Part shown: positions 2,782 through 9,163 of the stretch, piece after piece | How positions within the stretch are numbered: the stretch's first letter is position 1 | Layout of the letters: the number at the start of each line of letters is the position of its first letter | IMG/VR virus record: IMGVR_UViG_2700989507_000026 | Length of the DNA stretch: 11,629 bases | Direction: 5' to 3' (one strand) | Source of the DNA: a virus | Taxonomy: Duplodnaviria > Heunggongvirae > Uroviricota > Caudoviricetes | Program-made: the position numbers and the translations under genes | The notes under the pieces: model-generated | Told to the model about the DNA's origin: nothing | Databases searched by the model: none | What the model saw: only the letters and a program-made list of their open reading frames with translations

Positions 2782-3105
2782 ATGGATGCACAAACACGCC
2801 GCCGCGAACGTCGCGCAGAGAAACAGGCTCAATGGAAAGCAGCAAATCCCCTGTTGGTTGGGGTAAGCGCTAAACCAGTTAACCGCCCTATTCTCTCGCT
2901 GAATCGCAAACCGAAATCACGAGTAGAAAGCGCACTGAATCCGATAGACCTTACGGTGCTGGCTGAATACCACGAACAGATTGAAAGCAACCTGCAACGT
3001 ATTGAGCGCAAGAATCATCGAGTTTGGTATAGCAAGCCAGGTGAGTTCGGTATAACTTGTCAAGGAAGACAAAAGGTTAAAGGGGAATCCATTCCATTGG
3101 CATGA
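2782..3105 (+). CDS. N: Antitermination protein N (107 aa), lambda-like with several substitutions
   Basis: MDAQTRRRERRAEKQAQWKAANPLLVGVSAKPVNRPILSLNRKPKSRVESALNPIDLTVLAEYH...; RBS GGAGA at 2771-2775; track ORF 2650-3105 is an upstream extension through nutL. Confidence 0.92.
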   Translation: MDAQTRRRERRAEKQAQWKAANPLLVGVSAKPVNRPILSLNRKPKSRVESALNPIDLTVLAEYHEQIESNLQRIERKNHRVWYSKPGEFGITCQGRQKVKGESIPLA

Positions 3106-3113
3106 GGTACGTA

Positions 3114-3983
3114 ATGAAGAAGATTGATTACAAGTCCATACCAAAACCAATAGACTCAGCATCAGAGCGAAAAAAACACAAAAAAGAGGCTGAAAAATTA
3201 GCAAATTATATCAGTTTTATTAGAAACAATGCTCACGGCGATGGCGACAAGAAGTTGCTTTCAGATGCTCGGACCCAAGCGTTCGGTATACTTCGTAAGC
3301 AGATGCAATATCGTCTTCATCCTGGCTACATAATTGAAATTCGCCCTACTGAAAGACAATTGTTCTTATTAAACTCTGTCTTTGACTTTGTAAACGTAGT
3401 TGGAGATCTTATCGACAGGTCTGTAGATAAGGATCCTGATACAAATAGTTTTCTTCTAACAAATAAAGAATACTTATATGGTAAATTCGGTATAAACGGA
3501 TGGCAAAAATATGTACGCTTCTTACGTGCATTCGTTGATGCGTATAAAAATTCCGACATGATTTATACATATTTGCCTGGTGGTGATAATTGTACGCTTT
3601 CGGCAGACAATAGAATATTCATACCTGTACTTGGTCTTGGGCTGATTAATGCAGTAAATGAAAAAGATGTTATAATTGTTAAGCAGTGGCGAAAATATGA
3701 GGGATATAGATATCTGCCATGCTTTGATATATTAAAAATACAGAATAAATTCTATGTAAAAATTAAATATAAAGAAGATATTTTCTTCCTCAGAAAAAAC
3801 AAAGATCTTTTACAAGAACTTTCTGGTACAATAGATGTCATCTTAGGTTCTAGGTTTATAAAAGAACTGAAAGAAAGCAGGTCTTTCTCTCGTGTAGAGA
3901 TAAGCGAGTCAGAGTTATGGGGTATATCAAATAATCCTGTAAACCACGCTCACCAACGAAACCCAAACAAAAAGTGGTCATAA
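3114..3983 (+). CDS. Hypothetical protein (289 aa), AT-rich accessory gene in the N-ea10 interval where lambda carries ral/orf28/sieB; candidate exclusion or abortive-infection function
   Basis: Long ORF with SD GAGG 5 nt upstream of ATG 3114 (alternative ATG at 3102 overlaps the N stop); clearly lower GC than neighbours; no recognisable family or catalytic motif. Confidence 0.65.
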   Translation: MKKIDYKSIPKPIDSASERKKHKKEAEKLANYISFIRNNAHGDGDKKLLSDARTQAFGILRKQMQYRLHPGYIIEIRPTERQLFLLNSVFDFVNVVGDLIDRSVDKDPDTNSFLLTNKEYLYGKFGINGWQKYVRFLRAFVDAYKNSDMIYTYLPGGDNCTLSADNRIFIPVLGLGLINAVNEKDVIIVKQWRKYEGYRYLPCFDILKIQNKFYVKIKYKEDIFFLRKNKDLLQELSGTIDVILGSRFIKELKESRSFSRVEISESELWGISNNPVNHAHQRNPNKKWS

Positions 3984-4171: not shown

Positions 4172-4540
4172 ATGTCAAACATCAAAAAATACATCATTGA
4201 TTACGACTGGAAAGCATCAATAGAAATTGAAATCGACCATGACGTAATGACAGAGGAAAAACTTCACCAGATTAATAATTTCTGGTCAGACTCTGAATAC
4301 CGACTCAATAAACACGGCTCTGTATTAAATGCTGTATTAATCATGCTGGCGCAACATGCTCTGCTTATAGCAATTTCAAGCGACTTAAATGCATATGGTG
4401 TTGTGTGTGAGTTCGACTGGAATGATGGAAATGGTCAGGAAGGATGGCCTCCAATGGATGGTAGTGAAGGAATAAGAATTACCGATATCGATACATCAGA
4501 AATATTTGATTCAGATGATATGACTATCAAGGCCGCCTGA
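4172..4540 (+). CDS. ea10: Ea10 (lambda Ssb-like early protein, 122 aa)
   Basis: MSNIKKYIIDYDWKASIEIEIDHDVMTEEKLHQINNFWSDSEYRLNKHGSVLNAVLIMLAQHALL... matches lambda Ea10. Confidence 0.9.
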   Translation: MSNIKKYIIDYDWKASIEIEIDHDVMTEEKLHQINNFWSDSEYRLNKHGSVLNAVLIMLAQHALLIAISSDLNAYGVVCEFDWNDGNGQEGWPPMDGSEGIRITDIDTSEIFDSDDMTIKAA

Positions 4541-4612
4541 GCGCGGCGTTACCGCATACCAATTACGCTTCACTCGAGGCGTTTTTCGTTATGTATAAAT
4601 AAGGAGCACACC

Positions 4613-7070: not shown

Positions 7071-7150
7071 CAACCACTGAATGCATTTTTCTGGCAGCGG
7101 GCTTCATATTCTGTGTGCTTATGCTTGCCGACATGGGACTTGTTCAATGA
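7067..7150 (+). CDS. Small hydrophobic peptide (27 aa), possible single-pass membrane peptide
   Basis: ATGA overlap with the preceding stop; MTTTECIFLAAGFIFCVLMLADMGLVQ; its stop overlaps the next ATG (ATGA), suggesting a translationally coupled chain. Confidence 0.4.
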   Translation: MTTTECIFLAAGFIFCVLMLADMGLVQ

Positions 7151-7362
7151 CACCTCAGCAAGAAAACGCCCTTCGCAGTATTGCCCGTCAGGCTAATTCT
7201 GAAATCAAAAAAGCCAGACAGCAGTTTCCGGATAAAAACGTCGATGACATTTGCCGTAGCGTACTGAAGAAGCACCGCGAAACGGTAACGCTGATGGGAT
7301 TCACACCGACTCATTTAAGCCTGGCGATCGGCATGTTAAACGGCGTCTTTAAGGAACGGTGA
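7147..7362 (+). CDS. Hypothetical small protein (71 aa), early-left-operon gene of unknown function
   Basis: MTPQQENALRSIARQANSEIKKARQQFPDKNVDDICRSVLKKHRETVTLMGFTPTHLSLAIGMLNGVFKER; good coding texture, start coupled to the upstream peptide. Confidence 0.6.
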   Translation: MTPQQENALRSIARQANSEIKKARQQFPDKNVDDICRSVLKKHRETVTLMGFTPTHLSLAIGMLNGVFKER

Positions 7363-7382
7363 GCATGAAAAGCAAAATCATC

Positions 7383-7406
7383 AGGGAGCTACAGGCTCCT
7401 TTTTTA
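7383..7406 (+). terminator. Intrinsic terminator (tL-type)
   Basis: AGGGAGC-tacag-GCTCC hairpin followed by TTTTTT at 7400-7405. Confidence 0.6.
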
Positions 7407-7460
7407 TTGTTCGCATTCACCCTCAAGCGTATTAACCAACAATTCAGGGATTAATGGAAG

Positions 7461-7682
7461 ATGGCAGACATCATTGATTCAGCATCAGAAATTGAAGAAT
7501 TACAGCGCAACACAGCAATAAAAATGCGCCGCCTGAACCACCAGGCTATATCTGCCACTCATTGTTGTGAGTGTGGCGATCCCATAGATGAGCGAAGACG
7601 CCTGGCCGTTCAGGGTTGTCGGACTTGTGCAAGTTGCCAGGAGGATCTGGAACTTATCAGTAAACAGAGAGGTTCGAAGTGA
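7461..7682 (+). CDS. TraR/DksA-family C4 zinc-finger protein (73 aa), probable RNA-polymerase secondary-channel binder
   Basis: CxxC-N16-CxxC arrangement (CCECGDPIDERRRLAVQGCRTCASCQ) resembling F-plasmid TraR (CEACGNPIPEARRK...CVECQ). Confidence 0.8.
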   Translation: MADIIDSASEIEELQRNTAIKMRRLNHQAISATHCCECGDPIDERRRLAVQGCRTCASCQEDLELISKQRGSK

Positions 7683-7834
7683 GCGAAATTAACTAGAAGC
7701 CAAAGATAAAATCATCGCTGAGCAGGAGAAAATCGCTAACGGAGAAAAGACAGTAAGTCAGTATATGAAAACCGCATGATATCATCAGATAAAAATCGAT
7801 CGTAAAGCGAAATATTAATACCAGAATAAACGAG

Positions 7835-7858
7835 TCGAGGTAAATTATATTACCTCGA
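7835..7858 (-). terminator. Probable terminator for the minus-strand membrane-protein gene
   Basis: Perfect 9-bp inverted repeat TCGAGGTAA-attata-TTACCTCGA 35 nt beyond the stop at 7893; on the minus strand it is followed by CTCGTTTATT. Confidence 0.45.
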
Positions 7859-7892
7859 TAAATTAACTAAAACTTGCCCGCTATATACTATC

Positions 7893-8495
7893 TCATTCAG
7901 TATCATCACGCGCGGTCTGTGCATATGTTACTACCGCACCTAATGTATTAATTTTCTTTTCAACATAGATAATATTATCGTACTCATAATTGCCATACGG
8001 ATAGCAAATGCGAATATTCTCATGTAGATCGGGGTCATCCACCTCAGCTCCAGAACAACTTTTTGAACTACCGGAAGTATACCGATACGGTGCAACATAA
8101 GACGATGTCTCTCCAGGCAAAAAATAAGTTAGTGTTGTAAGGGGTATAATCAGAAAAAATCCAGCAAATATGCACATCCCTGCATAAACCTTAAGGTATG
8201 CTGACAGACTCTTCCAGCCGCTTTGTTTTACTATCCCCTTCTTAACCCAAAACAGAGATAACAGAAAAGCTATTCCCATGCTAAACAGAATGTAATAGTG
8301 GGATATACTCTGATTAAGAAACGTGACCCTGTAAATATCTGCCCGCCACCAGAAGAAAAGGAAAATAAAGATCAGGCCTGAAACTGTCATGCAAATCAAA
8401 TAAGGATACGAATCTTTTTTCATGTTTAGCGCCCATAAAATTTTTCCTGCCCCGGACAAATTTACCATCCATTTTTTGCGCAGAAAATAGCTCAT
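7893..8495 (-). CDS. Hypothetical integral membrane protein (up to 200 aa; about 3 predicted TM helices plus a roughly 75-aa Cys-containing C-terminal domain), AT-rich, transcribed against the PL operon
   Basis: Hydrophobic segments YLICMTVSGLIFIFLFFWW, YYILFSMGIAFLLSLFWV, AGMCIFAGFFLIIPLTTLTYFL; only sizeable minus-strand ORF in the early-left region; start is ambiguous (Met codons at 8495, 8468, 8423); no family recognised. Confidence 0.6.
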   Translation of the reverse strand: MSYFLRKKWMVNLSGAGKILWALNMKKDSYPYLICMTVSGLIFIFLFFWWRADIYRVTFLNQSISHYYILFSMGIAFLLSLFWVKKGIVKQSGWKSLSAYLKVYAGMCIFAGFFLIIPLTTLTYFLPGETSSYVAPYRYTSGSSKSCSGAEVDDPDLHENIRICYPYGNYEYDNIIYVEKKINTLGAVVTYAQTARDDTE

Positions 8496-8667
8496 TACTT
8501 ACTGCACAATAATACACAAAATTGCGTAAATTTTTTGCATGGATTTTAGCTCTTTCAGCCGACGTTTAAGGGGTAAATAGCATTTCCTAAAAGCAACTGC
8601 ACCAACCCAACAGAATGAGCTACCGCTTACGTTGAGAGCAAAAAAGTGTATAGCAGCAATGAACAGC

Positions 8668-8696
8668 ATCCTCGCACTGACGAGGATTTCTTTTAT
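8668..8696 (+). terminator. Intrinsic terminator on the + strand between the membrane-protein gene and the 55-aa ORF
   Basis: ATCCTCG-cactga-CGAGGAT hairpin followed by TTCTTTTAT. Confidence 0.55.
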
Positions 8697-8737
8697 CTGA
8701 ACTCGCTACGGCGGGTTTTGTTTTATGGAGATGATAA

Positions 8738-8905
8738 ATGCACTTCCGAGTCACAGGTGAATGGAATGGAGAACCATTCAACAGAGTTATCGAAGCAGAG
8801 AACATCAATGACTGCTATGACCACTGGATGATATGGGCGCAGATAGCACATGCAGACATAACCAATATTCGAATTGAAGAACTGAAAGAACACCAAGCCG
8901 CCTGA
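8738..8905 (+). CDS. Small hypothetical protein (55 aa) immediately upstream of xis
   Basis: RBS GGAG at 8727-8730; MHFRVTGEWNGEPFNRVIEAENINDCYDHWMIWAQIAHADITNIRIEELKEHQAA; stop lies in the loop of the next terminator. Confidence 0.55.
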   Translation: MHFRVTGEWNGEPFNRVIEAENINDCYDHWMIWAQIAHADITNIRIEELKEHQAA

Positions 8906-8920
8906 TGGCGGCTTTTTCTT
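8895..8920 (+). terminator. Intrinsic terminator just upstream of pI/xis
   Basis: AAGCCGCC-tgat-GGCGGCTT hairpin followed by TTTCTT. Confidence 0.7.
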
Positions 8921-8932
8921 GCGTGTAATTGC
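8919..8932 (+). promoter_or_regulatory. CII-binding site of the pI promoter (TTGC-N6-TTGC), which would give CII-dependent int expression
   Basis: TTGCgtgtaaTTGC immediately upstream of the xis ATG, as in lambda pI. Confidence 0.8.
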
Positions 8933-8944
8933 GGAGACTTTGCG

Positions 8945-9163
8945 ATGTACTTGACACTTCAGGAGTGGAACGCACGCCAGCGACGCCCAAGAAGCCTTGA
9001 AACAGTTCGTCGATGGGTGCGCGAATGCAGGATATTCCCTCCTCCGGTTAAGGATGGAAGAGAGTATCTGTTCCACGAATCAGCGGTAAAGGTTGACTTA
9101 AATCGACCAGTAACAGGTAGCCTTTTGAAGAGGATCAGAAATGGGAAGAAGGCGAAGTCATGA
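8945..9163 (+). CDS. xis: Excisionase Xis (72 aa)
   Basis: MYLTLQEWNARQRRPRSLETVRRWVRECRIFPPPVKDGREYLFHESAVKVDLNRPVTGSLLKRIRNGKKAKS matches lambda Xis. Confidence 0.95.
   Translation: MYLTLQEWNARQRRPRSLETVRRWVRECRIFPPPVKDGREYLFHESAVKVDLNRPVTGSLLKRIRNGKKAKS

Follow-up and report, generated by a model that had tools for sequence, protein, structure and literature searches.

Several described phage systems come close to the gene treated in this study. In phage P22, the exclusion protein SieA is a protein of the inner membrane, with about 164 amino acids (aa) and three transmembrane (TM) helices, and its gene lies on the strand opposite to gene 16 and has its own promoter (PMC10883804). In P2-like phages, the gpQ-gpA locus, which holds old and tin in P2 itself, is an established anti-phage hotspot (PMC9122126; bioRxiv 10.1101/2024.10.15.618418), and the annotation of old and tin gives them as genes of lysogenic conversion that have a mapped transcript start of their own. 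In their survey of this hotspot, Rousset et al. (2022) listed in Table S5B a "System #4", namely a single protein with no Pfam domain, labelled "3 TM", with 470 occurrences (PMC9122126). In phage lambda, the genes ea22 and ea8.5 fill the slot between a TraR/DksA-like gene and the t-L4/xis region. Here we analyzed the DNA of IMG/VR virus record IMGVR_UViG_2700989507_000026, a stretch of 11,629 nucleotides (nt) hereafter called the window, in which a minus-strand gene at 7893-8423 sits in the lambda slot, encodes a predicted three-TM inner-membrane protein and is homologous to System #4. Its product is best described as a prophage membrane moron, presumably expressed in the lysogen, which stands outside all characterised exclusion and defence families.

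Regarding these systems, the closest likeness is with System #4, the fourth most common cargo of the Escherichia coli P2 hotspot, whose representative aligns with the window protein at 52% identity over 168 aa (BLASTP, E = 3e-57). Each is a single gene whose product has three TM helices and is free of Pfam domains, and copies at 70-78% occupy the hotspot in E. coli and Salmonella; the window copy differs in lying in the lambdoid exo-xis slot and not in the gpA-gpQ slot of a P2-like phage, although it keeps a decayed hotspot boundary. The System #4 sequence does not appear in the table of cloned and tested constructs of Rousset et al. (PMC9122126), which indicates that the family has been catalogued but apparently not tested. 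With SieA the window protein shares a length of about 165-175 aa, three predicted TM helices, a strand opposite to the neighbouring operon and the status of a prophage accessory gene. However, the FxRYPxEAxxFNK motif of SieA is predicted to be cytoplasmic, whereas the conserved part of the window protein is predicted to be a periplasmic beta-barrel, and SieA belongs to the gene 16-gene 9 interval of P22-like prophages rather than to the lambdoid exo-xis region. The likeness to old and tin is one of position, since homologues of the window gene stand at the same place, directly downstream of the triple repeat on the cos-proximal side, and point away from cos. However, Tin is a soluble protein and Old an ATPase/nuclease of the cytoplasm, and there is no sequence or architectural similarity. 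In the same way, ea22 and ea8.5 share the slot with the window gene but lie on the PL strand, and their products are soluble and unrelated in sequence.

The window is an imm434 lambdoid prophage inserted at the lambda attachment site, with 434 Cro and cI, Hex, a lambda-type N, gam/bet/exo, xis and int, and with the host gene ybhC beyond int. Around the cassette its DNA is 99.9-100% identical to that of phages 434 and 2B8 and 98.9% identical to that of mEp332. An alignment of the window with lambda (blastn) gave homology over 7100-7694 (97.8%) and 8668-9100 (96.5%) and none between, and the 973-bp module so delimited (7695-8667, minus strand) occupies exactly the place of ea22 and ea8.5 in lambda. 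The GC content is 0.36-0.39 over 7650-8700, with 38.8% in the coding sequence (CDS), against 0.44-0.54 in the flanks. An earlier note, made from the letters of the window alone, had described a minus-strand AT-rich gene that replaces ea22 while all other genes from N through int lie on the plus strand; all of this was borne out by the lambda alignment, by the gene list and by the presence of a minus-strand open reading frame (ORF) at 7893-8495 (200 aa) with lower GC than its flanks.

The 5' end of this frame needs revision. Homologues of the protein are 169-180 aa long and all of them start at the residue equivalent to M25 of the 200-aa model given by RefSeq, and in nine of nine other contexts examined an in-frame stop lies 2-19 codons 5' of the conserved ATG, with no alternative start between. 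These upstream stops place the start at the ATG at 8423, so that the gene almost certainly spans 7893-8423 on the minus strand and encodes 176 aa plus stop, as far as can be read from homologue starts and upstream stops, and with support from the ratio of nonsynonymous to synonymous divergence (dN/dS) and from an AlphaFold2 (AF2) model. By the same homologue and stop evidence, both the 200-aa start of RefSeq and the 188-aa TTG start of the phage 434 record were rejected as over-extended. The 24-codon extension (8424-8495, minus strand) is not conserved and is probably a noncoding 5' leader with the promoter. In addition, a 56-aa minus-strand ORF at 8499-8669, called a putative membrane protein in phage 434 (CPT_434_35), was judged probably not to be a gene, because it overlaps the P2-derived sequence described below, has its start within the t-L4 hairpin and lacks conservation in the cassettes of P2-type loci.

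The gene is real and under strong purifying selection. Compared with the 78%-identical copy carried by a P2-like prophage of E. coli, the gene shows a dN of about 0.12 and a dS of about 1.2, with synonymous sites near saturation, which gives dN/dS of 0.10, and of 0.07 for the C-terminal domain. A protein alignment of 21 diverse sequences has 30 invariant columns, and these are concentrated in the first loop and in the C-terminal domain, the latter being the most conserved part of the family.

The protein was claimed by the earlier note to have about three TM helices and a small soluble C-terminal domain, and on this the hydropathy scan and the AF2 model agree: after three hydrophobic segments comes a soluble tail, about 75 aa long. 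The predicted helices TM1 (8343-8405), TM2 (8244-8306) and TM3 (8121-8201), all on the minus strand, were placed within 8121-8405 by hydropathy, AF2 and charge. The full AF2 model, made with the family alignment (pLDDT 87), has helices at residues 5-29, 38-61 and 70-101, a strand at 34-36 in loop 1 and a five-strand beta domain, and the C-terminal domain modelled alone reached a pLDDT of 90.7. This domain (7896-8120, minus strand; 75 aa) is predicted to be a five-strand beta-barrel with a net charge of -6 and two invariant cysteines, and to be periplasmic. Lysines are found as KK at the N-terminus and as four residues in loop 2, whereas the C-terminal domain is acidic, and by the positive-inside rule this distribution predicts an N-in/C-out topology. 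Loop 1 and the barrel would then lie in the periplasm, where the two cysteines probably form a disulfide. Conservation follows the same pattern, with IYRVTFLN in loop 1 between TM1 and TM2 and SCSGAxVxDPxL...IxICYPxGxY...EKRSNxLGxVV in the C-terminal part, while the cytoplasmic loops are short and variable.

A profile search of 1.84 billion cluster representatives returned 61 matches, and all full-length sequences inspected share the architecture described above; an outlying match to a 3074-aa repeat protein (E = 5e-6) was judged spurious. The C-terminal 88 residues cover the whole 90-position profile of PHROG 1416, whose function is not assigned (E = 2e-50), and the restriction of this profile to the C-terminal domain suggests that it was probably built from truncated gene calls such as that of phage 2B8. 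A sequence profile search of the PDB found nothing below E 0.38.

The signals that could drive the gene were then compared among the loci. The sequence TGGTAAATT at 8459-8467 (minus strand) is invariant in cassettes of the 434 type, the E. coli P2 type and the Salmonella P2 type, and variants of the form TG(G/A)TAA(T/G)TT occur at equal distance in two Salmonella loci (L013 and L015) and in Cedecea and Citrobacter loci; as a whole, the element TG(G/A)TAA(A/T/G)TT sits about 36-45 nt 5' of the ATG, and about 36 nt in the window. From this conservation we infer an extended -10 promoter of the cassette, with a predicted transcription start at about 8452. The -10 pattern occurs three times in the window against 0.73 expected. 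A start at about 8452 is downstream of the annotated ATG at 8495, and hence fits the shorter gene model; the conserved element falls within the unconserved N-terminal extension. The presumption of the earlier note that the promoter is in 8496-8600 thus gave way, in that the best candidate (8467-8459) lies inside the 5' end of the annotated ORF, and 8496-8600 is for the most part decayed P2 backbone and not a dedicated promoter. Strand-specific RNA-seq of E. coli EDL933 has been published (PMC4048457).

Two other promoters were considered and rejected. The sequence TTGT-N6-TTGT at 8506-8519 fits a loose CII consensus and is annotated as "CII binding site" in a phage 434 record (OL657226). However, the window has the pattern TTGY-N6-TTGY at five places, where chance would give 3.1, its genuine CII sites, pRE at 935-948 and pI at 8919-8932, read TTGC-N6-TTGC, and the motif is part of a P2-derived triple repeat with the wrong spacing to any -10-like hexamer. 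In a CII-activated promoter of the pRE, pI or paQ type, TTGC-N6-TTGC flanks the -35 and a -10 follows about 13 nt downstream. A promoter resembling that of old, with the third repeat as its -35 element, would leave a spacer of 14 nt to TATTTT/TGTTTT, which is too short.

At the other end of the gene, the perfect 9-bp hairpin claimed by the earlier note on the strand of the gene is present, with arms at 7835-7843 and 7850-7858 and a 6-nt loop. As minus-strand RNA this candidate intrinsic terminator (7835-7858), identified as an inverted repeat and by folding, has a free energy of -12.9 kcal/mol (z = -2.6 against shuffled sequences), and it begins 35 nt past the stop codon. A further hairpin, on the plus strand at 8668-8687, lies within the annotated t-L4 (about 8664-8694; M60848), was also found by a terminator scan and coincides with the position where lambda homology starts (8668); it is the right boundary of the module and stands outside the cassette.

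Upstream of the gene, the module contains a fossil of another phage lineage. Three heptamers, TTACGCA, TTGTGTA and TTGTGCA, are arranged with a 10-bp period at 8503-8529 (minus strand) and are preceded by an A-tract, and they represent the decayed cos-proximal boundary of the P2 gpQ-gpA hotspot. The exact form TTGTGCA-N3-TTGTGCA-N3-TTGTGCA is found in at least 120 IMG/VR contigs (L042, L045, L047 and at least 117 others), and among the matches listed a conserved P2-like backbone precedes the triple repeat and unrelated cargo follows it. In P2 (NC_001895, about 33455-33485), the equivalent repeats TAATGCA, TCATGCA and GAATGCA stand between cos and the old-tin transcript starts. As a side observation, the third P2 repeat overlaps the likely -35 element of the old-tin promoter by sequence reading, and the triple repeat could serve as an accessory site for terminase or cos, or else as part of a promoter. 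Our first reading, in which the heptamers were an activator site of the cassette, was abandoned because they belong to the P2 backbone and because none of the 120 contigs (0/120) has a family gene within 800 nt downstream of the repeat.

The P2-derived sequence is not confined to the repeats. The stretch 8495-8560 of the window aligns with the P2-like backbone, and a further P2-derived segment follows 5' of the repeats at 8530-8591 (minus strand), in which 8591-8556 matches 4749-4785 of L021, an E. coli P2-type locus, at 83.8%. The DNA similarity between the window and L021 runs past the gene, from 8560 to 7786, with extra patches at 8591-8556 and 7736-7693, the latter matching L021 5713-5756 at 77%. 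On the plus strand at 7679-7779 are the relics of an ea22-like gene, namely its first five codons VSEIN plus stop (7679-7696) and, in another frame, its last 27 codons EAKDKIIAEQEKIANGEKTVSQYMKTA plus stop (7696-7779). The corresponding part of L021 (5640-6070, minus strand of the locus) holds an ead/Ea22-like gene beginning MSEINYQALRE..., apparently frameshifted, convergent to the membrane-protein gene and adjoining an StbA/StbB partition system, all inside the E. coli P2-like hotspot. As read from its gene content, L021 shows that lambdoid exo-xis genes are exchanged with P2 hotspots. The presence of both decayed P2 cos-proximal backbone and ea22-like relics in the module shows that the cassette came from a P2-like gpQ-gpA (old/tin) hotspot. 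In the simplest history, a P2-like prophage would have recombined with a lambdoid one by way of homology in ea22, and the ea22-like gene would then have suffered an internal deletion.

P2-like prophages carry homologues between the portal gene gpQ and the replication gene gpA, with identities of 78% in E. coli, 58-70% in Salmonella and 55% in Klebsiella michiganensis. Of 79 IMG/VR loci that encode the family, 64 have lambdoid flanks (protein 98-100% identical), ten have the P2 boundary repeat (69-80%) and five have neither. Phage 434 has the identical gene, as does Sp3, a prophage of E. coli O157:H7 Sakai, in which it is named ECs0804. Requiring a match over at least 80% of a 1051-bp query, we found it in 905 of 5426 complete E. 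coli genomes (about 17%, roughly one in six), and the E. coli carriers include O157:H7, O55:H7, O145:H28 and Shigella sonnei. When species-representative genomes were scanned, the family was confined to the Enterobacteriaceae with the exception of one 3.6-kb contig in a "Candidatus Nanosynbacter" metagenome-assembled genome (L028, JARKOR010000073.1), which has a 99%-identical copy and is probably a binning contamination. In a P2-like prophage of Klebsiella (L016-L018, 2281-5623), the homologue shares the hotspot with a gene pair encoding proteins of 790 aa (weak AAA_16 match) and 279 aa, which may be another defence system.

Taken together, the architecture of a moron is well supported: the module is discrete and AT-rich, the gene is convergent to PL and has its own hairpin and a conserved promoter-like element, it is under purifying selection, and the family recurs in the P2 hotspot. 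In this respect the moron part of the earlier note stands. As to what the moron does, the reading we favour is a horizontally mobile cassette of one gene, with its own promoter-like element and hairpin. As the gene runs convergent to the PL operon, its transcription could proceed in the lysogen, where PL is repressed, and N-antiterminated read-through from PL during lytic growth would oppose it. The product would reside at the inner membrane with the N-in/C-out topology and would expose loop 1 and the small acidic barrel to the periplasm, where this domain could bind the DNA-delivery apparatus of an incoming phage or an inner-membrane host factor used by the phage, and the entry of the genome would be blocked without cell death. 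The same logic is known from SieA, HK97 gp15 and T4 Imm/Sp. Exclusion is favoured since the conserved parts face the compartment that the phage DNA-delivery machinery has to cross, since there is no partner gene and since the protein has no cytoplasmic domain for sensing infection. Expression from the prophage and action at the envelope are what we infer from the analysis; the whole statement, that is superinfection exclusion at the envelope by interference with entry, is put forward tentatively, as somewhat short of an even chance.

A number of results weigh against exclusion, and the functional part of the earlier note, which had proposed a SieA-like exclusion protein or an abortive-infection effector, did not gain from them. 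The window protein has no homology to P22 SieA (hhalign probability 0.2%), to HK97 gp15 or to T4 Imm/Sp, and the SieA motif is not seen in the window translation. No model of Pfam or NCBIfam matches the protein, and PADLOC-DB v2.0.0 gave 0 families at E <= 1. Fold searches found no significant structural neighbour, with nothing at E < 0.01 in BFVD. In the literature we found no published phage-resistance test of the family and no mapped transcript start. As for the regulatory signals, the candidate promoter has no good -35, which is why a consensus promoter scan of the window did not pick it, while the tail of the hairpin, CUCGUUUAUU, is moderately U-rich and no more, and the homologous hairpin position in L021 is weaker (-8 kcal/mol, z = -0.6). 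Moreover, the company kept by the family is not always one of defence. Part of the cargo of P2 hotspots is unrelated to it, with partition systems in about a quarter of the phages and a CDT toxin (PMC9122126), and in L021 the family gene itself adjoins a partition system. In species of the Enterobacter cloacae complex, a chromosomal orthologue is syntenic and host-like in GC, and single chromosomal copies in Klebsiella sp. and Cedecea add to this; together such copies suggest a phage-independent cellular role.

A more far-reaching version of the exclusion reading would make the protein the founding member of a new envelope-level anti-phage family, in which a periplasmic disulfide mini-barrel on a three-TM anchor would keep the genomes of other phages out. 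The gene would have been taken from a chromosomal envelope gene of Enterobacter and later handed on, along with part of the P2 cos flank, by P2-like phages to lambdoid ones. We regard this version as possible but doubtful.

The main rival is that the gene encodes an envelope protein for lysogenic conversion or host fitness, without phage exclusion, whose barrel acts on a host component in stress, transport, signalling or colonisation; the phage would have borrowed it from enterobacteria, to the direct benefit of the lysogen. In its favour, the syntenic orthologue in at least seven Enterobacter species has GC equal to that of its flanks and stands by a GGDEF/HAMP gene and often by a LysR gene, and single chromosomal copies occur in Pseudescherichia as well as in Klebsiella sp. 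and Cedecea; the non-defence cargo of P2 hotspots and the lack of a match to any defence model point in the same direction. However, the copies of E. coli, Salmonella and Klebsiella michiganensis are in prophage accessory slots, one of which is the best-documented anti-phage hotspot, and known exclusion proteins also have host paralogues, so that chromosomal copies are compatible with defence. On this balance we think the host-fitness account rather unlikely, though well within the range of what could be true. As for the chromosomal locus itself, the Enterobacter orthologue (L009-L012, L030-L033, L037 and L038) lies mostly 17 bp past a LysR-family gene and is convergent with a HAMP-GGDEF gene, and this copy may represent the cellular form from which the family descends.

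An abortive-infection or toxic effector, which would depolarise or permeabilise the inner membrane upon infection and kill the cell before progeny are made, appears improbable. In its favour, the protein is small, has several TM helices and belongs to a defence hotspot, Rousset et al. state that TM proteins of known defence systems are believed to act in cell suicide as effectors (PMC9122126), and a Foldseek comparison gave a weak, non-significant resemblance to an S-2TMbeta effector (E = 0.34). Nevertheless, the gene stands alone in every context, without a partner that could be a sensor or an antitoxin, the conserved surface lies in the periplasm whereas the cytoplasmic loops are short and variable, which leaves no obvious way to sense infection in the cytoplasm, and the family is stably carried in Enterobacter chromosomes and matches nothing in PADLOC.

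We consider a part in the phage's own cycle, such as lysis timing, injection or the establishment of lysogeny, to be still less probable. The exo-xis region, in which the gene is located, influences lysogeny decisions in lambdoid phages, and one version of this idea relies on a CII-activated promoter at the annotated site 8506-8519. That motif, however, is the decayed P2 triple repeat, occurs at chance-level frequency and has the wrong spacing to a -10 element, and the gene, which lies antisense to the early operon, occurs in chromosomes as well as in two phage backbones that are unrelated to each other. Finally, that the ORF is decaying or spurious and has no function, as its annotation as hypothetical, the neighbouring relics of an ea22-like gene and the disagreement of annotators on its start (200, 188 or 176 aa) might suggest, is scarcely credible and is effectively refuted by the selection analysis (dN/dS about 0.1), the 30 invariant residues, the confident fold and the intact copies in hundreds of genomes.

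The existence of the gene is not new, since annotations call it "hypothetical" or a "putative membrane protein" and a published catalogue includes its family, and its architecture will not surprise a specialist; what makes it a worthwhile candidate is how common the family is, that phage 434 and O157:H7 carry it and that it ranks so high in the hotspot. If the superinfection-exclusion reading is right, the protein would explain part of the phage resistance of about one in six E. coli strains, with a bearing on phage therapy and on competition between prophages, and it would give a function to one of the most abundant uncharacterised cargos of the P2 hotspot and to an unassigned gene of the textbook phage 434. 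Whatever the function, the locus records how a cassette moved from one temperate-phage lineage to another, unrelated one and took part of the donor hotspot boundary along.

Two further places in the window deserve mention. Directly 3' of N, a plus-strand ORF of 293 aa at 3102-3983 (31-38% GC) has the C-terminal end ...HQRNPNKKWS and is labelled "Nun C-terminal peptide-containing protein" in the 434 record; it has no match in Pfam or PADLOC, and it may represent a fusion of a larger protein with a Nun-like exclusion module. Near 8905-8945, phage 434 has an extra ORF of 114 codons (ORF114; 434 locus 4235-4579) between ORF55 and xis, which is absent from the window as well as from O145:H28 RM12761 and Sakai Sp3, and this position is another variable slot adjoining the cassette.

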